Position numbers and translations under genes: made by a program. Under the pieces are notes generated by a model. That model saw only the letters and a list, made by a program, of their open reading frames with translations. It was not told the DNA's origin and made no database searches. This document shows, in pieces, positions 3,387-61,351 of a DNA stretch of 64,000 nt. Source of the DNA: Ginglymostoma cirratum (Eukaryota); NCBI GenBank assembly GCA_024137785.1, contig JAHRHZ010000267.1, forward strand, positions 21,475,307-21,539,306, read 5' to 3'. Each line of letters starts with the position of its first letter. Positions within the stretch are counted from its first letter, which is position 1.

Positions 3387-3532
3387 CTGAATATTGGTTA
3401 GAAGTGTTTCTATTGAAGATAGTCCATCAGCAAATAAAAATGGAGCAGGAAACCCAGGCGGCAAGGCTTGCCCAGCCATGTGAAACTTCTCGATGCTGGT
3501 TCTAATGGCAGGCATCATGAGCTGAGTCTCAT
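3387..3532 (-). CDS. DACH2: DACH2-like coding exon, 146 bp, phase 1 to 0, start of DACHbox-C (DD2)
   Basis: Encodes (D)ETQLMMPAIRTSIEKFHMAGQALPPGFPAPFLFADGLSSIETLLTNIQ; SSIETLLTNIQ is the hallmark start of DACHbox-C. Acceptor ttctgtgctatgTAG|AT, donor CAG|GTAAAC. Confidence 0.95.
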
Positions 3533-6419
3533 CTACATAGCACAGAAATTGAATCATTAAGTGATGAAAGTATGGAATATTCACAATAGATAACAGTACA
3601 ATTCTAGTGCATGAAATCCATGTTAAGCAGCATGCTTTCCTCACTGGAATGATCAAGCTAACAAATAGTTCACTTACACAGAAGAGATCAAAAAGTTGAA
3701 ATCAGCCTTGTGTACCTTTGCATCCTGTTAGCCTTTCAATTATTTGATTATGTATGAACTTATAAATGGTGTTTTGAAGTTGACGTGTTGACTGCATGGG
3801 TAAAGAAATTATTGAGAAAGAACACTAGTCTGTGACATTAAAGATACCGCAGTGCAATAAATAAATGTCATCAGAACTCTGTCCACCACTCCTCCTTTGA
3901 GAATTTGTAAGTGAATTTATATTCCTGTTATGTGGGATATATGTATCCTGCCAAATATAAAAACAGCAAACATTTGTGCAAACATTTAAACAAAACAAAT
4001 CACCAGTTTAGCCAACATGCCTTAGAAAATACATCCCCTCTCATTGGAAAATGCCTGAATAGTCTTGGATAGAAGTTCTCGCTCCCGCTGCATGAGCTCC
4101 CAACTAATTAGCATGGTACTTTTTTTTAAAAGCACAAGTTGATATGGATATTGTCTAAATTTTAATTTCTCAAAACCTCTTGATGATCCAATATTTAGCA
4201 ATAACACATTATTTCCCATCGTTACGCCATAATTAGACATTTGATTCCTAATTGCATGTCGAAAAGCACCCCTTGATCGGTAAAAATGAATCTTCAAACA
4301 TTTTATTCACAGCATTATGTTTGATTCACAGATCAAATTTAAGAAAACATAGTTTATGTAATCTTGCCATTCACTTCTCTTTGCCTGTGTTCACTGAAGG
4401 AAAACCTGAAGTCACACCTGGCCTGAGAAATACCATTCTAGTTTGACTAATTCAGCTGTAACTAACATATATAATGCCTGTTTCAGGGCACTGCAGTACT
4501 AAGTAATATCTAGCTGTAAATTATATCTACTTCTATGTCTGTTACAAGATATCTTTCCACATCCCATTAGCTCAATAATTGACCGTTTGTCTCTAGAGCA
4601 GCAGATTAGTTGCTTGACTCTCTTGACATTGTCCAAACTTTCTGTCCTGACTGAAGAGTTCCACCATCACGGCAAGTTAAATCACTCCTACTGGCAGTTA
4701 ACTTTTAACAATGCTTCTAGGAACGTCCAAGGCCTAACCTGTCTTGTTGTACTAACTCAAAGCACGATATATGGTCAGAACTTCTGAAAAATGACTTTAA
4801 GAAACCAAAATAAAATGCACATCCAACTCTGAATAGACAATTTCCCAGTTTTCTGATTGCAACACTGAATTGAGTGCTCTGCTATACTGACCACAGTTAA
4901 TGGTTCGTAATGCTTTTGCAATGCTTCAAATTCAATGATCAATATAGTTTCAGCTGTATCTATTTCAATACTTCTTTCCCATAAGCAAACAGCTTTGATT
5001 TATCCATCTCCAATCCAATAATTCAGTGAGATAAAGTCATCCATGTTTCGGTTGGTATCTACTTGATTGCTTGTCATCCTTTTATTAAATGCCTTCCTGT
5101 TGTTTAAAAATTCATTTTTTATGTTTTGTTTCAGTCATTGAAAATATCTGCAAAGTTGCCAGGAATTCTGTCTCCGCAGTGCAAGCTGTGCTGGGGACCC
5201 GGACTAGTGTAGTTGCTCTTCAATCTACAGTTGTCACTGTTGAAATAATTCATTGCAAAATAGCCTGAAAACTGAAATGTAAAACAAATACTGATGATAA
5301 AATGCCAGGTCATATAAATTTTCTGGGCTGCATGTCTGCACTGTTGCAGGATTTTCCAGCAACTGTCAATAACTGTGTGTAAGATTCATTTCACAGCATT
5401 AAAGCAGGATTTCAAAACAAACCAAGACAATTTCCCTTTTTACTGCCTAAGCGTAAGAGTGGAGATGTTGATGCTAACTCACTCCCTGCTCCCACTGCTC
5501 ACTGGATCATGTATCATTCTTGGCAATCAGCTTGTTAAGAACTGGTTAGTGAGTTCTCGATGCCAACAGTAGCATCCCAGCTTGAGTCTGCAGCTTCCTC
5601 ATTCTAATCTCAGTTGGTGGGACAGTAAGTCACTTGTCTCTCAGAGTGGAGGTAACAGGGAGGGAGATATCAGAGGCATGAGCAGAGTGGTGGCTTTTAG
5701 CAATCATCTCCTTGTCCTTAACCATGACTCTGATTGCCCTGAAATTAGGACATGTGGAGACCCCTTCTAACCTCCACCTTCCCTCCCTCCCCTAAAAACT
5801 GAGAAGTCAGGTCACCAGCACTATTCTCCCCTGCCAGGAACACAGGTCATGGGAGAGGTGGTGAGATGAGGCCCGTTAAATGGTCAGTTAACTAACCACT
5901 TGAAAGATGTAATTGCTAGCAAGTCAGGAGTCCCCTCTGCATCTCCTTGTTTAGTGCTTAATTGGTGTGCTGGCCAGAAGGGAAATGAGATTTTCTCCAG
6001 GTCCAAGTCATCCAACTGTTTCCCATTCTCACTACTTCTCTCTACACCTCCCTGTGGAAGAAAATTCCATAGTATTATATTTCAAAATTCTATTATATTT
6101 GAAAAGAACAGCACATGCGCTTTAAGATTTTTTAAAAATCTGTACATCTATCTGCATTTTTCTAATGGTGCTTCAGAATGCTCTTCATCATAATTAAACC
6201 AACTTTACGTCCTGCCCCTTCCTCTTTCATCATCCTGACTGCCAGCAACAGGCTTTTCAAAAACAAAATTGCTAAGTACTTAAATGCCTAAGTCATCTCA
6301 GTCTGTTTCAGTGATGTAATTTAGTTTACAATAATTTACTTTTCACATACTGGGGCAAAAGTTCATACCTCCTGGTGGGCGCGGAGCGTTTATTCAGGCA
6401 GGAGGGAAATTTTTTTTGT

Positions 6420-12615: not shown

Positions 12616-15314
12616 TGTTTTACTGCTGACGCGAAAACCGCCACACTGAAATTGTCCTGGTGCCGGAATTTTTTGTCTCCGGCCCCCAATCCTCTCGTCT
12701 CCATTTCAGATTTTGAATGATGCCAACAAATCAGACCTCAAGTTCCAATTCTGCTTTCAAGTATCTGTTGCTTATACTTGGATAGATCAGTAACTGTCTA
12801 CTAACTGTAGAAGGGAGAAGAGGTGAGAGCATATTCTAGGATGACCACAATGCTCAAAGTAGTCTTAAATGATCTTCCTATCATCTTGTCTCCATTGCTT
12901 TGTGTTCTGATGGAATTTCTAGTGTTGTTAATCTCAGCAGTGTTTTCCCTGTTGTATCAAAAGGTTAATAGTTGTTTAGTATTTTACAATAACAAACTGA
13001 TTCCTGTAATGTTTATATAATGTGTTTACAATTGTAAATCACTAAAGTGGTTAAACAAATGTTTAAAACTTTTCATTTCCTTTCAGGGCAGACTTTGAAA
13101 CATTTATCAAGGCTGATTCCACAGTCAAACGAAAAAAAGTTGCGATATTTCTAGATGTGAAAATAGGTCATCCACTCCCGGTTATAATTTTCATCATGCA
13201 TGAGCCCACAGCAGCAGGACTGAATTATGGGACATTCTCACTACTTCATAACAGAAAATGTGACCTGTGTGGCTGAACTGAAAACACACAGACCTTCAGA
13301 ATGACAAAAACAACACACTTCAATGTATTCAATGAGATGGTTGAATTTTTTGCTTTCCGGTGCCAGTTCTAGTCAATATTTTAAGACTGGCAGCACAATG
13401 TAATTAATTCTCCTCTATCGCTAACCCAGTCCATGTTATATGTTTGCCTGCCATTTAAACTGAATTGATATTTTCATGTCCCCTCCCCCACTCCCCAAAC
13501 AACATCCCCATTCCCTTGTCAGCATCCCATCAGCACAGGGAAATAAATAGAAGTGTGAAAATTGTCTAGGTATGATTCATTCTCATAATCTGCCCGTGGA
13601 GAAGCAGGAGGAGATCACACACTAGATTGATCTTCTAGGAGAAGACAAATAGGACAGGTACTGCACCGAGGGTGGGAATTGGGATGACAGTGGCAAAGGT
13701 CACATTGACTTCCAATGATAACATAACCTCTTGCTCTCTCTTACCTATTATTTATTGACTATCTACCCCATAAGAGAGTGGTTTTAGATTTGTTTGTAAG
13801 GGCATCATTTGGTTTCGAAATTTTTAAGGCAATTATTTAATCGTTATTTTCCCTCTTTTTGTCAAATCTCACGGGAGAAGATTTTAAAATATTTTAAATA
13901 TTTTAAAAACGTCTTAAATTGTCTGCTGTCAAATTTCCAGAAATACCTTTTCGGACGAAGGAGGCAGACTGTAGCCTAGATCCCAGCAGTGAGATTTTAA
14001 AGCACATCTGTGATTATTTTGGGTCATAACTATCCATTTCAGTCATTAACAAGTATTTCTGGTGCCGGGACTCATTTTTGTAATGTGTTCTCTTGACCTT
14101 TCACTCCTAATACACAATTTTCTGCAGCAGTTTACTGGTTTGATCCATGATGATAACAATGACGTCCTCAAAAATAACCAACCATTTTTTTCACTACTGC
14201 CATAATTGAAACAATGTGTAAAATGATCACAGTATTTTAATGACAGATTTGTCTGTCTCAGAAACATTTTCAGACTCTTGCCTTGGGCCAATATGGCCTG
14301 TTAAAGTGATTTAACTTGTATACACCTATTGTGGGATTAATTTCAAACAGCATACGGATGACCAGCCATTACATTTCTACATTGACGTTTTCAGTCAAGC
14401 TTCTCTAGCTAAGTTCATTTTTATTGTGATATGGCTGATAGTTAAGAGAGAATTTGGCAGCATTTTAAAAAAAAAAGTGAGGTGAAGCAATAGATAGTGT
14501 TTAAAAAATGCCTATCAGCACAACCAATATGTAGTAACAATGTGAAATTTCTTTTACAACCAGGAATTGCAGCATTTGTAAGGCCAAAAGCATCCATTTG
14601 ATTTACAAGTTGTCACCATTGGCTGATCATTTAAAGATATAAGAGATTTTGCTTTGTATACATAAGCCTAACAGCACCCTGGCAGCCAGAAATATCTGAG
14701 TAGCTAAAGTGACTAAGGTCAAAATTAATTCAAGAGGGTTTAGTGTAAAAAAACTCTACAGATCACTTAAAGGCATTTTGGGCTCACTATTCGCACAACA
14801 TATTGAGTCCAATATTTTCAGAAGTTTGATTTCTTAACCTGCAAAGTGATCTATTCAACCTCTCTCAGTTTAAATTGAAGTAAATCTGTCAAAATTAGTT
14901 CCATCTGTTCTCATGATTTTATCACGTTTTCATTTCAAAGTGGGCTTTCAAACGAAAGTGTTCAGAAATGTTTTCAAAAATTAAAGCAGCCAACAAAGGC
15001 CAGCAATTTTGTCACGCCCAGCTTTTTGCAACGTCCCAAGCTCATAACTGGACTGTGCCATTACGCGCGACCAGCTCATCCCAGTTCCACGGAGCTGGGT
15101 GTTTTGTAAAGTAATGGTTCAGAAAGTGTGAAAACTGAAGTTGCATTATCTCCACTCGATCTGATAATGTGTCAAAATCTTTTGATGGAGAATCTAGCTG
15201 TCTCCTCAGTATCCTGAAGGAGAAAAACATTATCTCTTGCTCCTTGTATAATTGTAATTATGACTAACTATATTTGATGATATTTGTACCTACTGCTATC
15301 ATACTATAAACTAT

Positions 15315-15792
15315 GAGATAGCAAGAACTGCTATCTGCTGGAGTCAGAGATAACAAGGTGTGTTATCCCTGGGTGACATGTCCATCCTGGGCTTCCTCCA
15401 GTGTCACAATGACGCCACCCACAAACTGGAGGAGCAACATCTCATATTCCGTGGATTTTACCAGTTTCAAAATCTCCCCACCCCCGGCCTCATGCTACGT
15501 CCAAGCTTCTGTCTCATTGCTCCCCACCTTGACCTGACACAACCTGTCCATCTTCTCTCCTACCTATCTGCTCCTCCCATCTCACTGACCAATCCTCAGC
15601 ACTGCCTACCCACACTCACCTATCATCATCCCACTTACCTTCCGCAGCCCCACGCCTCCTCTCTCTCTTTATTTCGGAGCTCCCTTCTCCCTCCCCCGTT
15701 TCTGAAGAAGGGTCCCGACCCGAAACGTCAGCTTTCCTGTTACTCCGATGCTGCCCGGCCTGCTGTGTTCCTCCAGCTCCACACGTTGTTAT
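15315..15792 (+). mobile_element. Penelope-like retroelement 3' end: GIY-YIG C-terminus, pLTR with hammerhead, and an inverted pLTR piece at the 5' side
   Basis: SLGDMSILGFLQCHNDATHKLEEQHLIFR is the PLE GIY-YIG C-terminal motif. 15350-15362 ATAACAAGGTGTG is an inverted copy of 15780-15792 CACACGTTGTTAT (12/13). Same family as 59670-59793. Confidence 0.85.
15702..15729 (+). ncRNA. Minimal type I hammerhead ribozyme motif in the PLE pLTR
   Basis: CTGAAGA-A-GGGT(CCCG)ACCC-GAAA-C-GTC: both core boxes, a 4-bp stem II, a palindromic ACGT in place of stem III and a GUC cleavage triplet. Confidence 0.7.
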
Positions 15793-15931
15793 AGTATGGC
15801 TTTTTACACAAGACGAGCACTACCTCTTGTTGAGGCTCACCCCCAGTAGCTTATCCCCTGCCGTTGATAATTAGACAGAGCTTTACATGCAGCATAGAAA
15901 GGGAAAGGTTAAAAGAGTAGAAAAGAGGGAG

Positions 15932-16026
15932 AGCTCTTGTGGTGCAGTGTGAGTGTCACCACCTCTACACCAGGCAGCTCCAGAGGTGTGAAATAATATC
16001 TCGCAATAGGATGATTAGAAAATATC
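15932..16026 (+). mobile_element. Short tRNA-derived SINE, internally deleted
   Basis: A-box-like TGGTGCAGTG; B-box region missing relative to the copy at 6420-6532. Confidence 0.55.
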
Positions 16027-16064
16027 TGGAAAGGAGTGAACTACCCCAACCAAAAGCTCCCAGA

Positions 16065-16985
16065 ACCTATCTTTTGTCTCTGCTCTTCTAGGTGATAGAA
16101 ATTGCCTGTTGAAGTTGTCCGTGAAAACTTGAATTACTGCATCTTGTACTTGGTACACATTGCCCCACTCGGTAGGAAACAGTGTGAATGTTGAAGTGGT
16201 GGGCATGTCATCAATCAATCCAACTGCTTTCTCCTGGATGGTGTCAGGCTTTTTGAGTGTTGGAGTTGCACTCAGCCAGGCAAGTGGAGAATATTCCATT
16301 ACACTGACTTGTATCATGTAGATGGTGGACTGGCTTTGGCGAAATGCGATGAGTCACTTATCGCAGAATTCCTAACCTCTGACTTGCTCTTGTAGCCACA
16401 AAATCCCACTGTTCAATTTCTGGCCAATGATAATCCTCCGAATGTTAAATGAGGGTTTCAGTTACGATGACTGGGATGGTCATTACCTGGTACTTTTGTG
16501 GTGTAGATGTCACCTGTCAGGCCAAGCCTGGATGTCGACCTGCACATGGACAGCGACCAATTCAGTGCCTGAGAGGTCGTGAATGATGCTGAATACTTTG
16601 TGCAATCATGGGCAAACATCTCCCTTTCTACCTTTTGTGACGGAGGAAAATTCATAGGTCCAGCCATTTTTACCTGGATCAAAGAGAGTACCATGAGAAA
16701 TTCTTGGGGCTGAGATGGTTGAAAATGATGCTGGGAATGACTTCAACAGGCATCCCTAATCCCCACTGACTGCGGTTTTGCTACGGCTGCTCGATGCCAC
16801 ACTCATTCAAAATGTGGCCTCAATATCAGGAACAGTGAAGATTACCTCATCTCTTGAGTGCAGCTGTTTTTGCACACATTTGTCCACAAAGTTAAAATGA
16901 GGACAGCAGTTTTCTGGCCATGGTTTAATCCAACCCGAGTGTCAATGAGCAGGTTATTTCTAAGCGATTGCTGCCTCATAGCACT
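16065..16985 (-). mobile_element. CR1-group LINE RT/C-terminal fragment (second lineage)
   Basis: VSVMEYSPLAWLSATPTLKKPDTIQEKAVGLI and a decayed LDIKAAFDRVWH motif near 16800-16830; homologous to 43545-44390 and 63284-64000. Confidence 0.75.
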
Positions 16986-18099
16986 GTTCAAGTTTAAAAA
17001 AAAAAGGCAATTGCCTGGTCCAGAAATCAGGCATACAGCAAGAAAGAAAAATACTTGCTCAACAGAGCAGACATTGCTCATGATGGGCATTTATAAGACT
17101 AAAGATCCCCCAGATGATATGAGACAATTATGTAAGTCAGCAGTAAGATTTCCTGTGTTGAGGGAATTCACAGGATTCAGCATCCTCCAGATAAGTTAAT
17201 GGATCAGGTTTAGCAACAATGACCTCCTCTACAAAAGACATCTAAAAGATAAAACACTCTCCACAGAAATTGTTAACTGATTAATCAGGTTCAATGGTAG
17301 GTCTTTAGCCTGAGAACCAGTCTTGCAAGTCAGAAGGGAAGTGGACATCACATCAGCGGATAGGAATTTGGGATGTCATGAAAACATTAGTTTAGCTGCT
17401 TCTGGTAGTTTCAAGGGGCATCCATCCTTCTTGATATTGTGCACTGCACACACAATACATGCAGCATACATCCCAGGGAGCCAGTGGCTTCAGCAGCACA
17501 CCGATCTAAATCGCATGTCCAGTATGTTTGCATCTAGCTGTTCAGTTCCTCTAATGCTTGTCAAAAAAACTTCAATTATACCATTCATCCTCGTTGAGAT
17601 CAGTGTGCGTAATTAGTTCAAGCAAAAATTATTGCAGCTTTATGTTGGTTGCTTGCTTGAAAAAAGTCTTTAAATTGCAGATTGGTTAGGAACATGTTCT
17701 CTTGTATTTTGAAGTCTGAAATATTTCTAATTTTTTTTCTGTCTGACAATTAAGTGTTATTAATTCTCAAAATGTTGGGGGAATAATCTGCTTTATTATT
17801 GCTCCTATTAAGTGAGTTGGCAGTTTTCAAATAACTGGTTCTCTCCAACCATTTCTAAGTGACAGAATTACTCCATATCTGATCAAATCAAATTGAACAT
17901 ACCAGGTCAAATTTACAAATGGCAAAATATAATAATATCAAGATGGCTAAAACGACGAACAAGTATTTGCTGATCAAATCTTTCTCTGTTTGTATTTCAA
18001 GTGACATTGCACATGGTTGTGAAAAAGGCAGATTTTCCCTCATCCTCCTTCAACGCTTATCCACTGTCATCCAGCTGGGTAGGGCAGCTGTTGTGTGTT

Positions 18100-20539: not shown

Positions 20540-21440
20540 GAGGACAGAAGTAGGCCATTCGACCATCATCTACTATTCAATGAGACCATGGCTGATCTGA
20601 TAATCCTTCTCTCCAGTTTCCTGCCTTTTCCTTACAACCAGCAATTCCCTTACTGACAAAAAAAATTCTGTTTCAAACTTGAATATACTTAATGACCCAG
20701 ACTGTACAACCTTCTGCAATGAAGAATTCCACAGATTCACTATCCTCTGTGAGAAGAAATTTCTCCTCATTTCTGTTTTAAATGTGTGGCCCCTTGCCCT
20801 GAAATCATACCCTCCGGTCCTCGATTCTTCCCACGATGGGAAACAACCTCTCCACATCTGCTTGGTCAAGTCCCCTAAGTATCTTGCAGATCTGAATAAA
20901 GCTGCCTCACATTCTTTGAAACTCTAATGAGCACATGCCCAATGTGGGGTGGCATGGGGCTCAGTGGTTAGCACTGCTGCCCCACAGCGCCAGGGACCCA
21001 GGTTGAGTTTCAGCCTTGGGCCATCGTCTGCACATTCACTCAGTGTCTGCATGGGTTTCCTCCAGGTGCCTTGGCTTCCTTCCACAGTCCAAAGATGTGC
21101 AGGTTGAGCGTATTGGCCATGCTAAATTGCCCATAATGTTCGGGGATGTGTAGGTTAGGTGGATAAGCCTAGTTGCAGGGATAGAGTAGGGCTGTGAGTC
21201 TGGGTGGGATGCTCCTCAGAGAGTTGGTGTGGACTTGTTGGGCCAAATGGCCTGTTTCCACACTGTAGGGATTCTAAATATGCCAGTATATCTTTTCTTA
21301 GCAAAACTGTTCACAATATTTCAAATGGTCTCATGTCTTCTTTAGTTTTGGCAAGACTTACCCATATTTATACTCCATTCCATTTGCCTTCCCTATTACC
21401 TGCTGAGGCTAGAGGTTAACTTTGTGATTTATGTAAGAGA
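20540..21440 (-). mobile_element. CR1 LINE 3' fragment split by an HE1 SINE
   Basis: Minus ORF 20573-20869 contains ESRTGGYDFRARGHTFKTEMRRNFFSQRIVNLWNSSLQ, a classic CR1 ORF2 C-terminus; CR1-like sequence resumes at about 21280. Confidence 0.85.
20946..21276 (+). mobile_element. HE1-type V-SINE (tRNA head, V domain, CR1/HER1 tail)
   Basis: ggctcagtggttagcactgctgc head; tgggtttcctcc...ccacagtccaaagatgtgcagg V core; tail ggcctgtttccacactgtagggattcta. Confidence 0.9.
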
Positions 21441-29347: not shown

Positions 29348-29910
29348 TGAAAACAGAAATTGCTGGTGAAACTCAGCAAGGGGAACAGGTGAGTGGAGAG
29401 AGGGAGAATAACGGGATTGTTGTCAATGGGAGCTGAGAGTGGATGAGAAATGGGTTGGCTATGCTAAAAGCAACCCATGTTATGACAGGGCCAAGTATGG
29501 GATTGGATAAAAAACATGGGAGGACGGAATCTGTCTCTAAAGTTATTGAACTCAATGTTGAGCGCTAAAGGCTGCAGGGCTCCCAATCAGAAAATGAGAT
29601 GCTATTCACCAACCTCACACTGACTGTCACTGGAATACTGCAGCAGGCCTGTGACAAATGTTGGCGTGCAAGGCAGTCATCCAGCCTGTGTTCCAACTCC
29701 CCGGCCTATCCCCAGAAATGGAAACCAAGATAGCAATAAGAAAAGAAAGGAGTCAGAGATGGACCAGGTGAAGATGAAAGCAGGGTAGAACTTGATCAGC
29801 TTTTTTCAATTCCGGATGAGGGAAGCAACACCGATAATGTCATCGATGTAGCGGAGAAAGAGCTGTGGGAAGGAGCCCAAGTAGGACTGAAACAAAGGAA
29901 GTTCCACATC
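29348..29910 (-). mobile_element. Internally deleted Penelope-like element (RT, GIY-YIG end, pLTR piece)
   Basis: Minus strand reads LFQSYLGSFPQLFLRYIDDIIG (YIDD at 29850-29839), FTWSISDS, then HLIF*LGALQPLALNIEFNNFR, then a pLTR remnant. Confidence 0.85.
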
Positions 29911-30600: not shown

Positions 30601-33432
30601 GCCTCAGTAATGGCTGCCTGGGGTGAATAAATGAGTCCCACAGTTTACCTGACCCACTTCCATTCCTGATCTCATTTGGCTCTAAGTGGACAGGAAGCCT
30701 GACTGCTTTATCAATTGAGGGCTATAATCCATTCACAAGGACAGTCTGTCACTGGAAGCTTTTAAAAATTGAGTTTTTAGTCTCTTTTTAGTATCTTTCC
30801 TATTTGTAATTCTGATCAGCTAAGTTTCCCAGGTCTTAGGGAAACGTGCCTTTAAAGCGCTGCTAATGGACAAGAATGAGCAGGAGTGTTTCCACCAGCC
30901 CAGCAAATTAGCTTATAAACCACCTGCATGCTCTCTCCACCACCCCCTGTCATTTCCCCTTACTACAAAAACGGTCACCTCCACTTCACAAACCATCATC
31001 TTCTCCCATCCTTGCCTGCCCACTCCACTCCCCGCTGGCTTTCCTGCCCGTCGAAGATCGGGCTGGTTGTCTGGCAAGAAGCCTTGGGAAAGGATTTTGA
31101 CAGTTAATGAACGTTTACAGGAAGCCAGGAAGTATTCTCTCCACATCTCCCAGCACTGAACACACCGCTCAGTATGTTTGGGGAGCAAAGTAAATATTGG
31201 GAGCAATGTCATTTAATACTGTTTTAAAAAACCCACTTTTGATTGAGTTCTTGCACTGTTATACTCAAATGTAAGAAATCCCTAAGACACGCTGGTTATC
31301 AAAGACCACCATCACAGTTGGAGGGGGAGGCGGGGAGCTCAAAGGTTTGGCATGGGTTCTGTACTTTAGTTCACCAGAACTGATCGCAGGTGCATTCTAA
31401 AACAATTCATATTCTTATCTTTAAGAACATATTACAAATTGCTGTAGAAATAGCCAGATCCAAACTGCTTCTGATGTGCTTGTGTGTAACTTAAAAGGAA
31501 AATGTGTTGATCAACTCCATATGTTTTATCTACTTTGCACAAGTGGCTATTTTTCAGTGCAGTATTTCCTTACTATTGCCAAGGCACCTCTGCTTTCTTT
31601 GCATCTATGACAAGGTCACATCCTTTTGTTGCTTTCAGTGTACTTTTTTTAATCTTTCTTTGTAAGCGGATACAATGTTCAGGAAATATCCCATATTGAA
31701 GAAACCCACAATACCTGTCTCACTCTCTGTGGCCATGTCAAGTGTTTTGCACCTGTCTTTTTATGGTCTCTCCAAAGATCTAATTTTACTTGACAATGAT
31801 GAATTGGAAGTTTACTACAGGGAAACCCTTAGACATGAAACTGAGTGGAAGAACATAAGATGGCTTTATAAGTGAACACAAAAAATTTGCATCACGCAGT
31901 TATCACTGTCTGAAATAACTGCGCAAATAATAATATATTTTGAGGATTCTACCCACTAAAAAGTTTTCAATGTCTTCTTTCTCTAGTCCATTCATTTAAT
32001 ACTCTTCCCACCTCATCTCTTTTCTCAAAATTTTGCACTATTCTTCAAGCATGACAGGGCAAGTAACCTAACTCTTAGGCTTCTGTTAAGATTCTTGAAC
32101 TGGGTGCGGAAGAGGCTGACTTGCTTTCTGTGAAAACACTTCTGCTTGGTATGGCTTTGATGACCCGCTGTGTGAGTTGGTATAGATATTGTGGCTAGGT
32201 ATCCTATTTGTAATACACCATCCCATCGACGCCCTCCAACACTGTGTAGCCATACCAAATTTTTAATAAAAGTTACAATCTGATCCAAGCAATGATGCAC
32301 ATTTTTATTTCCTTTCCAGCATGCACATGTTTAATAATTTCCGATGCTGAAAAGTACGCTGATGACGAAATTGTAGCCTAACATCACTTAGCATCAGTAG
32401 GATGTCCACCACGATTAGCAGCTGCTGCTTCAGATTTTTCTCTCACCTGCTTTTCTTTGGTAAATTTTGAATGGCTTTTAAATGTGAGTCATAAATTACA
32501 ACTCATAAAAACAAAGTTTGTCCCATTTGTTTTCTATTTAAATAATTCCATTTAAAGTAAGTTTCACAGCTAAAAGCCTTGTACTTCAGCAACAGAGCAC
32601 CCCAAATATCTAAGTGGTTGTACCTCCCCTGCTTCAGCTCTCCATCCCGGTATCAACTATGCAGGATTTTAAATATACACATTGGGATTTATATTAATCT
32701 TATTGAACAAGAATAGCTTATTGTTCTGTTGAAAATGTTGGATCAATGTTTATATCAGCAATGAGAATTCCTGTTGAGATCAATGCTTAATAAAAGCAAA
32801 AGCTTTATTGGAAAATCCTACTTGTGCTTAACTGGAAGGAAATGACTGCAGCTGGAAATGTTATGCAACAATACATCAATCCTAATGTATAAAATATGTG
32901 GTCCTTTATTTGGGCATTTTTACGTGGTAATATTTGCCTAATTATAGGAACCATTACATGTCAGAGTAAATTATTAAATGACTTATGTACCTTTTTTGTT
33001 TGTTTGAAAACTCATCTGCAATAGCAGCAGTTTTTGTAAATGTGCAGGTTGACATTTTGTGAGTATCCGTGAAAATAGCTCACCAGTGAATTCCTTCTGC
33101 ATTCTATTTTTAGGTCACCCATTTATATATTCCCATCTGCTATATTTTAATGGTGACTTTAACTCTTAAAATAAGCCATGTACATTTTTCAAGTAGAAAT
33201 GTAAGACGAAGATGAGAAAATTGAGATGGGGAAGTGAGTGGGAGAAGAAAGATTTTCTGCAAATACATTATAAAAGTGATAAAGCCTTTGCTGACATATC
33301 TGAATATGATCTTTCTGATCTCTTCCAGAGAAACTGGGATCAAAGCATATTCCGGGAGCTTTAACAACATGGTTATGTAACTGTTGTCTCTCTCTTCTCT
33401 TACATTAATATTAAATTAGAAAGCTGTCCTAC

Positions 33433-33513
33433 CTTTCTCCTTTTGACTTCTCTTTATATTGGGTCCATTATCATGATCATTGAGTTCCCCTTCTCTAGTC
33501 CCAGGCTGACCAG
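33433..33513 (-). CDS. DACH2: DACH2-like short symmetric coding exon, 81 bp, phase 1 to 1
   Basis: Encodes (S)GQPGTREGELNDHDNGPNIKRSQKEK, similar to DACH1 PGPKEGDLAGHDMGHESKRMHIEK. Acceptor ttttctttgccaaCAG|CT, donor AAAG|GTAGG. Phases fit both neighbours. Confidence 0.85.
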
Positions 33514-34154
33514 CTGTTGGCAAAGAAAATATGTAATAATCTAATTTATTCAACTGGACCAACACCAGAGAATTGGTTCTTTTTAAACTATTCACATTAT
33601 ATTTGCATTCTTGCAAATCCAAGACTTTAAACTTCTCGTTAACCTGGGGCCCCCTACTTCAGCATACTACTTGTGCATATAAAAAAAAATTACAAATATC
33701 TGAGCACATACTTCTAAGCAATGCCACATTTCCTGGCTTTGTTGTCATACTAGCTCTATATTCTAATATAATAATGCTTTTAAACATATACTAATACAAA
33801 AAATAGTTTTTAACCAACCAACAGAATGGTTTACCTGCCCATTACAGACTGGTTAGTTTTCATTTTCAATGAAGAATTGTTTTATAGTGGATAGGCAATC
33901 TGTCCTGTGATTGACTGAAGTTGATATTTACCCCTTTATAATTGTGTGTGGTATTGATCTTCCTGTAAGTGATGCATTTATTGTACAGTGTCACACTTGG
34001 AATTGCATTTTGTGAATTCCACCATTGTAAATTAAAATTTCTGACTGGCTTCTAATTTGCATTCACAAATCATAAAAGAAGAGACAGACAGCGCGTGAAA
34101 CAAACTTGGAAAAAGTTGATAACTAAATGTTGAATGAAGAACCACTAAAACAAT

Positions 34155-36785: not shown

Positions 36786-39086
36786 GAACACTTATCCACC
36801 AATTGCTACAAGCAACCTTTTGTATAAGATTATGAAATATGATTTTTTTTCTATTCCCCCACACCCCCTTCCAACACCAAACATGTATTTACTAAGCTCT
36901 GCGCTACCTACTAAACCCCGACTCATCGTTATCATTACCTCTTCCTCTTTGAAATGTCTTCAATGTCAGGACCCTTCTCCCTCAAAATTGACTGCTGCTT
37001 ACCTCACCTTTTGAGCTTCTATTCACTCTCACTCACCCCTCCTGACTCAGTCAGTGGAGCCCAAATGTTTCAAACACCTGAATTTGTTTCTTGTCTTTTT
37101 AGGTTCTCTGAGGCCATTTTCTTTCATGAGTCATATGGTGTTTTTCCAAATAAAGCAAGTAAATAAAAATAGAACATGCAAAAAAAAACTAGCTTGCTCT
37201 TCATTGATCTTTCTTGCCACAGTTTGCAATTTATTTCTCTGTAGTAGAAATTAAAATCTCCCTCTCCTATCTAGCCTTCAGTAGTAGACATGAGAATTTG
37301 ATTTTGTTTCACTCTGTATTAACACTAATATGAAGAAGAAAATCTCTTCTCTCGACCTCTCTGACCTTGGGTTGGTATCTGTCCCTTTCGGTCCAGACGT
37401 TCGCTAATATCAGTTGGTCTGCTCTTGCTCTAAATAATACTGAACATCATCCTGTTTAACATGTTTTCTGAAGTGTGTCATAAAACAAAAAAAAAACAAA
37501 AGAAGATGATTGTGATTCATGCATCAACAACCCTATTTGAGCCTTACGTGCACTAAACGTACCTCTGAAATTGGTCTGTCTTTAAAACAAAAATCTTTAA
37601 CAAGAAAACCAGCAACTGAAAATTGTGAAAAGCTGAAGAAAAATGCTCTATCAAAACAAGCACCTTCAGAAATTGGCACTGCCCAAAATATTGTCCATAT
37701 CCCAGCATTCTGGAGAAGCTGAAATCTTCAATAAGAACTTTAATGAAAACATCAAGGTGCTTGAATTTATACATTTAATGATGTTATTACAACATACGCC
37801 TACTTACTTATATTCTGACCTCTAGAATTGGTAGCCACTAACAGAAAAAAAAGATTAATTATGAAAAAAAATCCAGAAGTGTTTTGAGAACTTTCTGAGA
37901 ACCCAAGGGACAGAGTACTTCTCACAATGACAAGGTCACAGAGGACAACCAATTACAGCTATGGGCATAGAAATTTAGATGTGGGAAAACTTTGAAACAA
38001 ATATTTATGCAGACAAACTCTGCACATATCTAATATAAATATTCAATGGGTTTTGACATTAATTTCCAAATAATATGAAATATCAAAGTTTAAGTGTTCA
38101 AATAGTTACAGCAGTTTGCATTTTTTAACCCAGTTTTGAGTTCAGAATGTCACTATTCATATAAAAAAAGTGACAGCCTCTGAAAGGACTTCATTTTAAA
38201 GCTTGAAGGATAGCCTCTAAGCTCTTTGCATAAATGCAGTAGTAACATTTATATGCATGCTTTCTTAAAGGAGGGACATTGCAAATATATTAGTAAAAAG
38301 CTACATAAAAACGTATATATGATAAAACAAAATTGACCTCACGCAGAAGTTTCTCGACATATTTACGGTACCTCTCTGCTCTAGTAGAAAAAGTTGTAAA
38401 AGCCCTTAAATTGCAGTGTCTGTAAAATACTTTTACAAATTGATTTCCAACTTCCTTTGTGAGAGATTTTACTTCACAAACAACCCTAGTTATAAATGTG
38501 TTAGGTGACACACTGACAATTATCTTAGAAGATCGACCTGCATGCATGTATTTGGAATTTCTATATATATTCATACAAGCATTGGCTATATTTGTTTACC
38601 AATATTCTAACGTTGACTTGTCACCTCCTAGCATTTAACTGGATTATGATATGATTTATAAACTACAATAATTACTTCAGTTTTATTCACTCCGTATCTC
38701 CATTGTCATTTTGTGCTCTGCCCGTTGATGTCCACATTAATCTGTCAATGAAATAAAACCACTGTCTGTATGTCAGATACATACAGGATGATGGCATTAT
38801 ATAACTTCAAGACAATTGGTCTTTCGACTAAAGTGAAGTAGCAATTTTTTTTTTTAATCCTGGTTCATGCCAGTATGTAAACCCCCAACCAAAGTAACCA
38901 CTGAATTGTTGTCATCATTATTCTATCTTATAATAAGGTGATAATTAAAGCTGCGAAATAATGCTCAAAATTACTTATGGGTTAAACAGCCTATAAATTT
39001 CAGAAATAATTAATTCGCATAAACAAGAGCTAGAATTTTTGGGCTGTGTAATAGCTCAGAGAACTCAACAACGAGAACTTGCTTAC

Positions 39087-39222
39087 ATATTCTGTCAGAG
39101 GCAATGTCATGTTGGGATGGTGAGCTAGACACACTGCTGCTCTGATGTGAAGAGGGGTGACTTCCAGGTCGATGAGTGTCTTCAAGGGATGGTGCTGGGG
39201 ATGGGCTATTATGAACCCGCTC
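39087..39222 (-). CDS. DACH2: DACH2-like internal coding exon, 136 bp, phase 0 to 1
   Basis: Encodes ERVHNSPSPAPSLEDTHRPGSHPSSHQSSSVSSSPSQHDIASDRI. Acceptor tttttgttctgccacCAG|GAG, donor T|GTAAGC. Phase joins the previous exon in frame. Confidence 0.93.
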
Positions 39223-40994
39223 CTGGTGGCAGAACAAAAATTCAAGAGGTTGTCCAAGTAGATGACTGTAACTTTTACTGGCTTGTACTGGCATTCCCTA
39301 CATTCCGAAATACAAGGTTAATTTTCATTATTCATTCAGGTTTGTACATAGTTAAATATATTGTTATTACTGATGTAACAGTGGAAAACACTGAAGTTAC
39401 ACATTTAGCACTTTCAACACATTTCCATTCAAAAACAAATCAAATCAATATTTAGAAAACGTTATGTTCTTATTTAACTCATCACCTGGGTGGTTTCTGC
39501 CAATTTATATCTAAAAATTACTCATTGATTGTATTACCATTCCAAACAGAAAATGAATCTCTCTGTACATGTTTACCTACATGCTTATGGAAGACTGTAT
39601 TAAATAATAATTTACTTAAAATTGACCGAACAACCTACTGGGCCAATTTTGTAACTCACAGAACATAACATTTTTTCTGGCACTATGTTTCATGCAGTGT
39701 ATTTGCTTTATATTGTAAATGATTTCCATTTTCTATATATTTTAGTCTGTGTAGACTGGATGCCAACATGATTAAATCCAAAAACCTACACACCTTGCAT
39801 ATGCTTTAAGTCTAACATAACGTTTCTGTTAGTGGCATGAAAGTTGATCAAGTAACATTAGTTGAATAATGAGTTATGAGTTCCTGTTGACTTCCAATAA
39901 GACCAAAAAGTGATTGTCAGTCTGAAGGTGTCACTCAAACATTTCGCACCTTCAGTTTTAGAAAACCTGCTGGGTGGCAGATTTTTTGAAAGAAATGATG
40001 AGCTCAATTTTGGCATAGTCTCTGGACAGAATTTCTATCAACGTCTACTGGATATACAGACATACAACATCAAGTCCCTATGTATCCAAGTTTCCACTCA
40101 AATGGCTGAAGGAGAAAAGAGGTAACAGCAAACAGCTAGAATAAAATGAACATGACAGAGGTTTCTCAGAAAGCTTTGGTGCAGTATAGGTTTCAGAGTT
40201 ATGTAACATGAAAATCATTACATGATGTTTCTAAGAAAACGAATCCTTATTTTTCAAAAAGAAAATGTACAAATTGAGGATAAATATAAAAACAATGGGT
40301 TTGCATTGCAGCTGAAAGAGCAGACAAAGTACAAAAGTACTTTGGGACTAAGGTTTTCAAAAATGATCTGATAAATAAGCTTCATCATGATGCTACCAAA
40401 GAAAATCCTTAAGTCACTGCTGTAAGGTTCATCGTCAGGCATAATTCACTGCAGATCAGATAAATCAGACTTGCCAAGTTCACATTTATGACAATATCAT
40501 GAGTTTCCAGTCCAGTTCCTAGCCAATAAGAAACCAACGTTGTCCAACTGTGTTCCACCTCCAAAATGGATGATGTAATTGAGAAGCTCACAAAAGAGGC
40601 ACTTTAAGTTTGAAATGAAAATATAGAGTGGCTATGTTAGTCAGAATAAAACAAATGTAAGAAGTGTGGCTTTTTTCTTTAAAAACTGTGGACTGCAATG
40701 AGAAAGAACTGTTTTCAAAAACAGGGATTTACCAAGATGCCTGCATAATTTCACAGCAAGAAATTCAATAACCATTTGTGAATACCTGTCTTTTTATGGC
40801 TATGGATTCTTGCAATGTGCAGGTGGAACCAAGGTGTTTGTTTACAGGTGTAGCTGATTTTTCAAACCTGCTCAGTTAGCTAAGAATAAGAGACACAATT
40901 TACAGAGACATGGACAGAAAGAGACAGAAGGGTGTGCATTTGTTCTCCCGAGCAGTAGATGTCTGTTTTCTGTAATGAAAAGCTCAGTTTAGAA

Positions 40995-41300
40995 ATCATA
41001 GAATCCCTACAGTGTGGAAACAGGCCGTTCGGCCCAACAAGTCCATACTGAACCTCAGAGCATCCCACCCAGACCCATCCCCCTAATCTACACATCCCTG
41101 AGCACTACAGGCAATTTAGCATGGCCAATCCACCTAGCCTGCACATCTTTGGACTGTGGGAGGAAACCGGAGCACCCGGAGGGAACCCACGCAGACATGG
41201 GGAGAATGTGAAAACTCCACACAGGCAGTCACGCGAGGCTGGAATTGAACCCAGGTCCCTGGTGCTGTGAGGCTGCAGTGCTAACCATTGAGCCACCATG
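40995..41300 (-). mobile_element. HE1-type V-SINE, well preserved
   Basis: Minus strand has A box TGGCTCAATGG, B box GGTTCAATTCC, the V core and the tail ccacactgtagggattctatgat. Confidence 0.92.
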
Positions 41301-44938: not shown

Positions 44939-45255
44939 GGGCAGCACGGTGGCTAGGTGGTTAGCACTGCTGCCTCACAGCACCAGAGATTCGAGCCTCT
45001 GGTGACTGCCTGTGTGGAGTTTGCACATTCTCCCTGTGTCTGCGTGGGTTTCCTCCCATAGTCCAAAAATGTGCACGTTAGGTGGATTGGCCATGCTAAA
45101 TTGCCCTAGTGTCCAGGGATGTGCAGGCTAGGTGGATTAGCCATGGGAAATGCAGGTTACAGGGATAGGGTGAGCCTGGGTTGGATGTTCTTTGGAGGGT
45201 CAGTGTGGATGCAAGGTGACAAATGGCCTTCTATCACACTGTAGGGATTCTATGA
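44939..45255 (+). mobile_element. HE1-type V-SINE
   Basis: gggcagcacggtggctaggtggttagcactgctgcctcacag head with two small internal deletions; tail cacactgtagggattctatga. Confidence 0.92.
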
Positions 45256-45319
45256 TAAATGCCATTATTGCCCTACAAAAATGAAACCATGAGACAGAAA
45301 ATAGTCTGATTTATTTAAC

Positions 45320-45450: not shown

Positions 45451-48111
45451 TTGCCTGACTAAAGAAAATGGTATTCATTTCTCCCAGTAGGAATCCTCAC
45501 GATGTAAAGGTTGCGAATCCAGTATTAGCACAGTCATGGGTAAAGGGCAGCTCACCACTAATTATGATTGTAGATAAAAAGGTCACCTACCATTGCAGAA
45601 AGTAGTGATTTTATTTTTGTGTCCAAATATGAAAACAACTAATGCCAGTTGTGACAGGTTTGTAAAGGTTAAGGTGGTGGAATTTTGATTTTTGCTTCGA
45701 GCAATGATGCTATACTCGAAAAGCTTGTGCCATTACTTTGTCTCTGCAGGAAATTTTCCAAACTGTAAAATGTTTTGAATGCTGTGATTTGATCTCCATG
45801 TCATATTCTCACTGTACTCAAAGAAAAGGAACTATTTCCCATTTTTAAAACTTGAAAATTGTCAAGTGGCAGCCAATTAGTCAGCAAATGTTGTTCAAAG
45901 ATCGCCAACAATTACTCTTAATTTAATGGAGGTGTAAACCTATTGAAACTGTGCTAGAAGGGCAGAGTTGCATTTCCTAACTCTGCAAACCCAAACCTGC
46001 AGGAAGTGACCCAGAAAAGTTGGGATTTTTTTTTGGGATGGATGAGTCTTTCGGAGGGGAACCAGGCAATTCCAGAACTGGAGTGGAGACTGCTGGGTGG
46101 GAGAGGACTGGGTGGAAGGCCTGCCTTCATGCACTGGCGCTGTACATAACATATTTAAATGTTAATAAACCTCAATCCCCATGCCCCATCCATGCTGCTT
46201 CATACATAACTTTGCATACTCTCTATGCCCCTCAATCCCCCCTTAACTTGGTATACCCTCCATTCCAACCTATACTCCTTACTGAACGCCATGACACCTT
46301 AAAACCCCTCCCAACCCATGCACCGATCCCCGGACCCTCCACCATATTAATTCACCCAATCTGAGCCATGAGAAATCTTTGGGACCCAAGCTACAATTAG
46401 ATGAAATAAAGCTCTAACCTTATATATTGCACTCTTCACTATATTTATAAAAAAACTGACTACATTTAACTGTCTTCCACTTCATACTTTCTTATAGCAA
46501 AAGCATTTCATTCAAGTGTAAAACACTTTACAACAACAAGCAACAAAGTGTGAAATTCCACTTCTAAGAGTTTATTGCACTTGGAGTTTTTGATCAAACT
46601 GAAATTGCAGGCAGTCTACAACTAGAATGTTAATTGGGAAATCAGTCATGTTGCTCAAATGCAGGAATGCCCGAGGCTTATGTCAACTGACAAAATAGAC
46701 GAGCAAGAGTATTCTTTTTTTGAAAAACACTCAAAAACATTTTTCCCCAAAAATTTAAAGGGCATGGGCTAAAAATGTTTTGACTCTTGTGACAGCTTTT
46801 TATCATGACCAGTCCTCTTGACGATCACTGTTCCAAATTAGTTTACACACATTTTCATGCTTACTTTTAACAATTCTGTTGGGCACTTGGCCTCCCTCAA
46901 AAGTGTCCCAGGACACATATACAAAAGAGTATCTTATCGCTCCAAAAAAAAGGTACTCTGACCATCCAAACAACTTCAAAAATTTCAGAGGCACTCCTAT
47001 CAGGTGTAATCTGTGTCCCAGACACCAAAAGCATCAAGAGCAGAGGCTACAGCTACCTCAGCAAAATGTGCAGGTGCAAAGCACATCTTCCCTCTATCCC
47101 CATCACTACCAAAACATCCGCATACCTGATTCATGGTTGGGGCTTCCAATTTTTGGCCACATCTAATAATTTCACCCCAATGGTGAGTCTCTCTATCATG
47201 CAAAAGTTCAGGTCTATATATTTTCACAGTGTTTGCAATATAGACAAGGACAAAATTCAATGCGCATGCATAATATCCGAACAATCCTTTTGAAGGGAAA
47301 AAGCTGCTGTAGATTCTTGACCTGTTTCTACCACAAAATATATGTATAAGAGGTCAATTACACAACTGTATTATTCTGTGTGTAAGAAAATTGCCTTTGC
47401 TCGCAAATTGTAAGATGCAACAGCAAACATTGAAAGTTCAAACTCTGCTCAGATTGACATGAACACTGAGCTGCAGTGATTAGTGACCTTCAGCATTCTA
47501 CAATTCAAGAATGAGCTTCAATTAGTTTGTAACTTTTAGCTTTTACTCTTAATGGGCAAATTACACTACAGCTTACTTACACAGATAAATTAGCATAGAA
47601 AAGTTGTTGGTTATTGCTTCAAAAATTCTAATCTAAAACAAAAATTAATTATCATCTTAACTCAGTAAAGTTGGGAAAAGATAGTGACCCAACATTTACT
47701 GACATGGGGCATCTTACATTGTTGCATCGTTTCCCTGAACCCTTCAGCTCAAAAATGTTTTGTCTTGTACGCTGTTGAGAATACAACTTGAGAATAGCAT
47801 GCTGAGGGTTACAGGACACTTGAAAGACAAGGCCAGTAGTCCAGTGATTAATAAAAAATGGCAAAGGAGTGTCTATGAGATTGCATGAGCTCAGTGCCAA
47901 ATTGGGTCCAGAAACAGAGAAAAGATTTGGTTAATAGAGAGGAAAGAGCAACGAAGATAGTGAAAAGAGTAATTAAAACTTTGACATTTAGAATCTCCAC
48001 TGTCAAAGTTACTGCAGAAATGAATGAGGGTCCACACTTTCTTCGTTGTTCACTTTCTGGACCAGAGAGGCTGATTTGGAGGTATTAATTTTAATGCAAA
48101 ATTATGAGAAG

Positions 48112-48454
48112 CATAGAATCCCCACAGTGTAGAAACAGGCTATTTGGCCCAACAAGTCCACACTGCCTCTCCAAACAGCATTCCACCCAGACCCATCCCC
48201 CTACCCTTTTCCTGTAACCCTACACTTCCCATAGCTAATCCACCTAAGTTCCACACCCCTGGTCACTACAGGCAATTTAGCATGGCCAATCCACCTAACC
48301 CACACATTTTTACCCGGTGGGAGAAAACTGGAGCACCGGTGGAAACCCACGCAGACACAGGGAGAATGTGCAAACTCCACACAGTCAGCTGCCTGAGGGT
48401 GGAATCAAATGTGGGTCCCCAGCAGTGTGAGGCAACAGTGCTAACCACTGAGCC
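48112..48454 (-). mobile_element. HE1-type V-SINE
   Basis: Near full-length reverse copy from catagaatccccacagtg to gctaaccactgagcc. Confidence 0.92.
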
Positions 48455-50338: not shown

Positions 50339-50914
50339 CTTTTATACAGGGGAAAAAAAAGATTATATGCATTAATGTCTTTACATTCTGCTTGAATGTG
50401 ACCTGTATTCATTTGCTATATTTTTTGTTACAATGAACCCTCATTATGTCTCCGATTAACATTTTGTGGTTATTATAATAAGTATATGTAAGAACTCTTG
50501 AGTATCTGACAACAATGTTAGTATAGATTTTAACATTGCACTGTTGCAACATAGTACCTAGGGACACTTCTTTTGTTTGGTTAACTTCTAACCAGCATCT
50601 CAATTATAAAGGATTCAATGATTTCTTAATACCTAACTACCCGTTTAGCAGATATTTAACTCACCCATGAGGCTGACATTAAAAATGTTTTTTGTCATAG
50701 CTTTAATCTTACTTGTCTGATCCCTAATGAATAACAATTTTCTGCAAAGCTTTCACCAGAGACCGTGCAAACAAATGCAAGAGATCAGGCAACACTTCAC
50801 TAATATTGAAGATGTAAAGAAATGTCAGCAGCAGAATTTCACATAAATAACAGTTATGACTGAATGGGTAATGACCTGTCCTGTACCAGGGCTGGTATGA
50901 GCGATAACATTCTT

Positions 50915-59669: not shown

Positions 59670-59793
59670 GAGATAGCAAGAGCTGCAGATGCTGGAGTCA
59701 GAGATAACAAGATGTGGAGCTGGAGGAACACAGCAGGCCAGGGAGCATCAGGAGAGCAGGAAAGTTGACGTTTCGGGTCGGGGCCCTTCTTCA
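59670..59793 (-). mobile_element. Solo Penelope pLTR fragment with a damaged hammerhead
   Basis: Reverse complement matches 15703-15792 and extends into the sequence seen inverted at 15315-15362; the core reads TTGAAGA-A-GGGC(CCCG)ACCC-GAAACGTC. Confidence 0.85.
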
Positions 59794-61351
59794 AAAAAAG
59801 CCAGGAGGATTTGGGATCAGTGGGATTTTGTAATGTCTGTGCATTGTACACTACACACTTCGTGAGAAATGTGCAAGGATTGAAATACAAAGGAGTGGAG
59901 GTGTCTCCCATTAGGCATGAGAAGTCAGGTGTGACCTATAACAGTTCCGATTCAGAACACCAGACGATGGCCCTGCAGCACACTCTGAGCACGTTTCTAT
60001 GCTGTATGACTCCATGACTTTATGTTGGCACCAGCACGATTGCAATGAGGCAAATCAGGAATGGGAAATGTGAAGAGAAATTTTACAATAGTGCTTAATC
60101 CCATTCTTCTCAATTGCATTCCAGAGGATGAGGAGCCTTGCTCATTGCAAACAAAGCAGAAAGATTTATTTGGAAATAACGGACTCACATCTTTGCCTCT
60201 ATGTGGTGGAGGGGGATGGGAGAAGAGTGGAAAATGTGTTCATTTATACATGGAGTATTTTCTGCCTCCAATATCATAACTGAACCTTCCCAAATCAGGT
60301 ACAACATTAGGCATAATTGAGTTTGGTTCAATGGGCCTCAAGTCCAGCAGGATAATAGCAAGAAAGACAGGGAATAGGACAGTAAGTCCTTCTATTGCCT
60401 CATTGCCCTGGCCTGATTCCTATCCTATCAACACAGCAAGGCCTGCTGCTGGTTATTGGCTCCCCTAGGTAAGGAGTGGGGACCTAGCCCCTTAACTGAA
60501 ACTTTTCCATGCACCCTGTATACTAACTTCTAGGACTACCCAGTGAAGATGGTACAGACCCAACACTACCAATGAGTGCACAAGAGGCAGCCTAGAAAAG
60601 GCTGCTCATCCCTTTAGTTTAGCCCTAACAGGTCACAGATTTGGATTTCAGACTAAGTCGAGGTGAACCAAGAAAGCTAATCCACCTGAATCTTTGAGAT
60701 CTGCAGGTGCGACCAGCAGGAAATCTAAAAGATCACTTTTGGATCCGGGGACTACGCATTCCCACATCCAGGTGAAACTGCCAGAGAAGAATGAGGTAAA
60801 GAAGAGATCACTTACTCCGCAGCATGAGGTAGCCTCCTAGTAGTAATTGGCTCTGTTAGTCTGGATCAGATCAGGGCTGGTACCAGAATCTTGCTAAGGT
60901 GATCACTGTGGGTGAACCCCAGCAGATCACTGGAAGGGGCCCAGAAACCCCTACCCCTTCACCCTGGAGCCACACCTAGGTCATAGAGCCAGAGCAGCAG
61001 CATCAAGCCGCTACAGAGCCCTCCTCACTGATCTCTTTGCAGCAATGGATGCAAATCATTTTAAACAATTTTTGTATTCTTCATCTTTAGGCACCCTTGA
61101 CGTTCTGTTGCTGCAGCGTCCATCTCTCCTGTTACCAGCACAACTCGGTGTGCCCTCACTTGGTGCCAGCTGGGTACTGGGTCAACCCAAGTCCTGAATT
61201 AGATGGCACTCTCCAGGTGGCCTCTAAAATCAGCCAGCTCCAAAGGAATTGTTTGGACAGGGGTACAGACATCAACAGCAGGGTTGGAGTTCACATTTGG
61301 TCCTGATTGTGGCATACGATTTAAATTGTTTGTCATTGGTCATGCCTCTTC

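Follow-up and report, generated by a model that had tools for sequence, protein, structure and literature searches.

Hammerhead ribozymes of a minimal kind are known from the pseudo-LTRs (pLTRs) of Penelope-like elements (PLEs). As set out in the available portion of Cervera and De la Pena (2014; PMC4209133), these PLE hammerheads combine a CUGANGAH box, a helix II that starts with G, a GAAAN box, a palindrome and an NUH, with the base between positions 9 and 10.1 named as a conserved trait; the same source reports no cleavage by monomers and low cleavage by dimers. Likewise, the PLE hammerhead of Anolis carolinensis is described as inactive alone and as dependent on the PLE protein for cleavage (Frangieh et al. 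2024; PMC11167929). According to the accessible text of that study, mutants of the Anolis hammerhead still insert in vitro, uncut RNA is the main template in vitro, and the reverse transcriptase begins synthesis within the RNA, at a tail flanked by two internal RT start sites. Craig et al. (2021; bioRxiv 10.1101/2021.04.23.441226), in the part of the preprint available, describe the role of the hammerhead in endonuclease-bearing PLEs as unclear, and report that Naiad PLEs spread without one. A literature search that took in few subscription papers found no published description of PLE hammerheads in sharks, and there are no cartilaginous fishes among the 56 published rows in Fig. S3 of PMC4209133.

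In the Ginglymostoma cirratum window (the whole stretch of 64,000 nucleotides analysed), we identify a genuine hammerhead motif of the type already described for PLEs, and consider it very probable that a PLE hammerhead of known type survives here in a dead copy, 5'-truncated and decayed, that lies antisense in a dachshund intron and is likely inert. Each letter that a first-pass annotation had assigned to the motif is present in its place: the plus strand reads CUGAAGAA-GGGU(CCCG)ACCC-GAAA-CGUC at 15702-15729 or, with its parts set off and the next two letters included (15702-15731), CUGAAGA-A-GGGU(CCCG)ACCC-GAAA-C-GU-C↓AG. The CUGAAGA box (15702-15708, with C3 at 15702) is followed by an extra A (A15709), a 4-bp helix II (GGGU 15710-15713 with ACCC 15718-15721, loop CCCG) with the closing pair G10.1-C11.1 (G15710-C15721), the GAAA box (15722-15725) and C-G-U (15726-15728); C17 stands at 15729, so that the predicted cut falls between 15729 and 15730. 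Both core boxes, CUGANGA and GAAA..UH, match in full, and an A-C-G-U palindrome (15725-15728) takes the place of helix III, with C-G as the 15.2/16.2 pair. The annotated identity, a minimal type I hammerhead with palindromic ACGU replacing helix III, fits the published PLE consensus. The extra A, which had been called unusual, proves to be ordinary, since 54 of the 56 rows of Fig. S3 of PMC4209133, judged by eye in the copy available, carry an extra base (A in 30; 11 of 11 vertebrate rows); 13 of the 56 share the GAAA-C-GU-C ending.

The core pattern of the first pass occurs a single time in the 64 kb, and none of 100 dinucleotide shuffles contains it. A structure-aware descriptor, which requires helix II, its G-C closing pair and the palindromic pair and tolerates one deviation, finds the 15702 site alone in the window and nothing in eight of eight block-shuffled windows. 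Searches with the Rfam hammerhead families returned no match (E ≤ 5 over the window, E ≤ 10 over 15600-15850), and the minimum-energy fold of 15680-15800 is unremarkable and not a hammerhead (z = +1.09).

Table 1. Features of the PLE insertion, its family and its host gene in the window.
Feature	Position	Strand	Evidence or detail
Inverted PLE end piece	15315..15362	-	48 nt, matches 3' end of copy 2
C-terminal scrap of PLE GIY-YIG endonuclease	15363..15486	+	tblastn with relatives
3' pseudo-LTR: pyrimidine-rich stretch, hammerhead, downstream segment	15487..15792	+	Repeat depth, copy 2 match
Helix I arms	15698-15701 vs 15730-15733	+	U-A, U-G, U-C mismatch, then G-U
Minimal type I hammerhead core	15702..15729	+	Letter check, pattern and descriptor scans, consensus of PMC4209133 Fig. 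S3 (as available)
Copy 2, same family, 128 bp	59670..59797	-	Hammerhead 5' edge to tail end
dachshund a (DACH2-type) exon closing host intron	3387..3533	-	100% over 49 aa to P0008
dachshund a exon opening host intron	33425..33514	-	tblastn; GT donor adjoins exon end
Further dachshund a exons	39297-39079, 50339-50166	-	tblastn

The motif was correctly placed in a Penelope pLTR: it lies inside the pLTR of a 478-bp PLE insertion (15315-15792), downstream of an endonuclease remnant, and repeat depth falls to the flank level outside these limits. The insertion, 5'-truncated and decayed, runs from an inverted tail piece through a GIY-YIG endonuclease end to the pLTR (Table 1). Its inverted piece consists of a 35-nt tail (15315-15349) and 13 nt complementary to 15780-15792, and is 89.6% identical over 48 columns to the 3' end of a second family copy (copy 2; 59670-59716); the 34-35 nt tail occurs in the inverted piece alone, the direct pLTR stopping just before it. 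From 15699 to 15792 the insertion is 89.5% identical to copy 2. A search for target-site duplications around the 478-bp insertion revealed none of 4 nt or longer, and no tandem array was present in 14500-17000, where the motif stands without a tandem partner. In its 5' truncation, adjacent inverted piece and one-ended tail of 30-40 bp, the insertion resembles the EN+ PLE unit of Craig et al., as far as that source could be consulted; unlike that unit, it has no RT and about 124 nt of ORF left.

Decay is extensive. At least 28 of the 38 positions listed in the element read otherwise at more than 50% in both DNA runs, and the divergence of the intron copy from its family is at least 6.5% of 430 nt. 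One point that tells against an inert copy is that, among the 40 differences listed, none falls in 15699-15739, so that by the positions listed the core equals the family majority; at a 7% rate the chance that 15699-15739 stays unchanged is about 0.05, for a copy that was picked as intact. A 6.3-kb contig from a second organism carries the left flank together with 17 nt of the inverted tail, and we estimate that the relative sharing this junction is about 4-6% diverged; as a related species has the left junction too, the insertion has persisted, which likewise counts against inertness. The intron copy is a broken, truncated piece of a protein-coding PLE.

Comparison by tblastn with relatives bears out the GIY-YIG C-terminus proposed about 250 nt upstream, which ends 216-250 nt before the hammerhead. 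All seven relatives match 15366-15452, six at 85-93% identity and one at 52%, and a second frame is matched at 15448-15486; the scrap has an internal deletion of about 32 nt with a frame change near 15450, and family contigs carry 33-38 extra letters across 15445/15450-15452. Pfam gave no relevant match for the 42-aa scrap or for a 146-aa frame; across the 25 proteins found with the scrap, it gave sub-threshold GIY-YIG matches in 11 and RVT_1 in one. Because the intron copy keeps only the last part of the ORF and no RT, the clade must be read from the relatives. Four of six aligned relatives have a Cys-rich linker before the GIY-YIG motif, in a region outside the portion retained in the intron copy; a CX2-5CxxC linker between RT and endonuclease marks Neptune/Nematis (bioRxiv 10.1101/2021.04.23.441226, as available). 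By these sequence comparisons the element is likely a Neptune-clade retroelement.

The host intron, about 29.9 kb long, belongs to dachshund a, and the exon that closes it shows no difference from dachshund a in several cartilaginous fishes. The intronic location given in the first-pass annotation therefore stands, although it entails no link to the host gene: the gene is on the minus strand and the motif on the plus, which makes the hammerhead antisense to the dachshund a pre-mRNA, and a descriptor scan of the host-sense strand of 15301-15800 found no hammerhead core. The exons themselves differ in how they match two reference sequences: that at 39079-39297 is 91-92% identical to P0008 and P0031, those at 50339 and 3533 are 98-100% identical, and the exon that opens the intron is matched by P0008 and not by P0031, differences that at the sequence level suggest alternative splicing.

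With the published PLE hammerheads (PMC4209133, in the part available) the shark motif shares the core, the extra base, the G10.1-C11.1 pair, the C-G palindrome and a place in a pLTR after the endonuclease; the published motifs, too, are mostly lone copies in truncated elements. The nearest row is a Neptune element of Acropora digitifera, with a 4-bp helix II, a 4-nt loop and CGUC followed by AGCUUUC, seven bases that also come next in the shark motif. Helix I sets the two apart: Acropora has three Watson-Crick pairs, whereas the shark has only U-A and U-G (U15701-A15730 and U15700-G15731, then a U-C mismatch), as had been claimed and as the letters confirm. Published helices I span 2-6 bp, and the six cases of 2 bp consist entirely of G-C pairs, unlike the shark's. 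At 15698 the family has A (95-99% of depth, in four of four runs) against the G of the intron copy; this A contributes no more than one A-U pair on the far side of the mismatch. Among the 40 variant positions listed, none offers an alternative letter at 15699-15701. The weak helix I is a true departure from the published examples, not the sign of a new kind.

Folding predictions agree with this picture of a feeble helix I. The U15701-A15730 pair is given a probability of 3e-5, and a competing CUGA/UCAG helix one of 0.50; with helix I near zero and this competitor present, unaided cleavage by the monomer is predicted to be unlikely, and the weak helix I points towards low or no unaided activity. 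Helix II, by the same kind of modelling, is well formed in RNAs that start at 15690-15699 (pair probability 0.84-0.99) and falls to 0.02-0.18 in longer RNAs, in which 15682-15688 pairs with 15706-15712. We considered whether this upstream segment is a designed 'off switch' and rejected the idea, since shuffled upstream sequence behaves alike, with helix II probability at or below 0.2 in 131 of 200 shuffles and at or below 0.05 in 71 of 200. Two-molecule folding prefers a non-hammerhead dimer (-26.2 kcal/mol, against -12.7 kcal/mol for helix II plus an ACGU duplex), a preference that carries little weight because the model has no ribozyme-core term.

The claim of a high-copy family is amply borne out. 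In four sequencing runs 5,269, 8,588, 42,543 and 41,963 contigs align to 15200-15900, nearly all of them on the repeat, so that each of the two DNA runs (the last two figures) contributes about 42,000; summed contig depth, which is not a copy number, is 5.3-5.9 million at the motif and 13-22 in the left flank. Viral contig scans yielded no family copies (0 and 0), and two metagenome matches and one bacterial genome match were set aside as chance, all three being without family flanks.

The ends of the family copies are informative. A pile of loose ends just before 15699 is among the six largest in four of four runs (108, 258, 892 and 814 contigs), and the letters that precede 15699 in it are unrelated, mixed and A-rich (agreement 0.34-0.35); the cut site, 15730, is not among the 24 loose-end positions listed. 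In contig joints the tail abuts 15699, which is also where copy 2 begins, with the caveat that G15698 of the intron copy can draw nearby starts onto 15699. The pile at the 5' edge, together with the lack of one at 15730 among the positions listed, fits the copying of uncut RNA, and the template RNA probably began just ahead of the ribozyme. Family contigs also contain opposite-strand joints of 15699-15700 with 15743-15761 (15699-15784), fold-back insertions at the 5' edge of the hammerhead. We suggest tentatively, as a reading that we think doubtful on balance, that the short family copies are akin to strong-stop cDNAs, with tail-primed reverse transcription extending to the 5' end of an RNA that begins just before an uncut hammerhead. 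Were that so, in a family whose helix I has eroded the motif would be retained as a signal for starting and recognition and not for cutting, and the function of PLE hammerheads could be tested against the very large natural record that shark genomes would contain. The single locus matters little, since the ribozyme type is known and the copy is decayed and antisense; the family matters modestly more, in that its abundance and its 5'-edge ends let the role of the hammerhead be tested by junction counts in an assembled shark genome.

The Poseidon element of Anolis (PMC11167929, as available) offers a further comparison: it too has a hammerhead in its pLTR, and the shark tail follows the cut site at a distance of about 65-100 nt. 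It differs in that the relatives of the shark element carry the Cys linker of Neptune/Nematis and not of Poseidon. By analogy with these published cases (PMC4209133 and PMC11167929, both as available), the motif in the parent element, which has no helix III of its own, would act as a pair, two copies in a tandem transcript joining through the ACGU palindrome and cutting slowly after C17, probably only with the help of the element's own protein. To account for the intron copy, we propose that reverse transcriptase of the element, primed near the tail, read across a hammerhead that was uncut (or re-ligated) as far as the endonuclease end and halted there, which would have left the inverted tail at the far junction. 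The intron copy spans the cut site unbroken; deprived of a partner and facing away from the host transcript, its motif is likely silent.

The alternative that fares best holds that the hammerhead of the whole family no longer cuts, helix I having eroded family-wide, and that the motif survives in the role of 5' start of the RNA, whether as a promoter or as a folding or protein-binding signal; it is compatible with an inert intron copy, and we regard it as a serious if unlikely possibility. Helix I is weaker, by eye, than in all 56 rows of PMC4209133 in the copy available, and it shows no alternative letter at 15699-15701 among the 40 positions listed; the end piles before 15699 and not at 15730, among the 24 listed, and the 5' edge of copy 2 point the same way, as do the insertion of Anolis hammerhead mutants in vitro and the spread of Naiad PLEs without a hammerhead, both as reported in the accessible parts of those sources. 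Yet every catalytic position is retained, and the Anolis motif is inactive alone yet cuts with the PLE protein (PMC11167929, as available), so that loss cannot be read from a weak predicted fold; moreover, the variants and loose ends listed are a subset of those recorded, and G15698 can pull starts onto 15699.

A non-autonomous, retrozyme-like system, making circular RNA from tandem units, appears improbable. The first-pass annotation had proposed one, and the family does resemble non-LTR retrozymes in its type I hammerhead and in being a high-copy repeat tied to PLE pLTRs (PMC7229834; bioRxiv 10.64898/2026.07.22.740005; both in the parts available). Short copies from hammerhead to tail are common, and the preprint, so far as accessible, traces the retrozymes of animals to PLE pLTRs and reports their presence in the single chondrichthyan that it sampled. 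For the intron copy, however, the proposal fails: it is a truncated piece of a protein-coding PLE and still carries part of the endonuclease, where retrozymes have tandem units, and with no tandem partner in 14500-17000 it is not a retrozyme. The two copies in the window lie 44 kb apart on opposite strands, helix I of the minimal motif is shorter than that of canonical retrozyme hammerheads, and eight of nine Xenopus dimers tested in the same preprint did not cut.

Takeover by the host, for cutting or regulating dachshund a RNA in the manner of the conserved intronic hammerheads of amniotes, is very improbable. The intronic position, the intact core and a left junction shared by a related species would suit it; against it, the motif is antisense to the pre-mRNA, is one of very many copies, and needs a partner of which there is none nearby, while in copy 2, the sole sense-oriented copy, C3 and one pair of helix II are gone. 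That the motif is a chance match, as the lack of an Rfam hammerhead match and the non-hammerhead local fold might hint, is refuted by the shuffles (0 of 100 and 0 of 8 yield it) and by its PLE context, for it sits where PLEs carry such motifs and has traits beyond the search pattern, so that this reading can be virtually dismissed.

Copy 2, the sole other family copy in the window, is sense to dachshund; its C3 has become U with G8 unchanged, and a C-A mismatch breaks one pair of helix II. The 7-nt sequence TCCTCCT flanks it as a direct repeat, one instance lying 5 nt upstream of its 5' end and the other immediately following its 3' end, and may represent a target-site duplication. Elsewhere in the window, 29536-29907 on the minus strand holds what remains of an older PLE in more advanced decay, with stops and with pieces of RT and endonuclease that are 27-53% identical to the relatives used for the endonuclease scrap; no hammerhead was found downstream of it. 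A dispersed repeat of about 300 bp, likely a SINE family, is present in four copies and both orientations (20958-21276, 40994-41300, 44945-45256 and 48109-48454).
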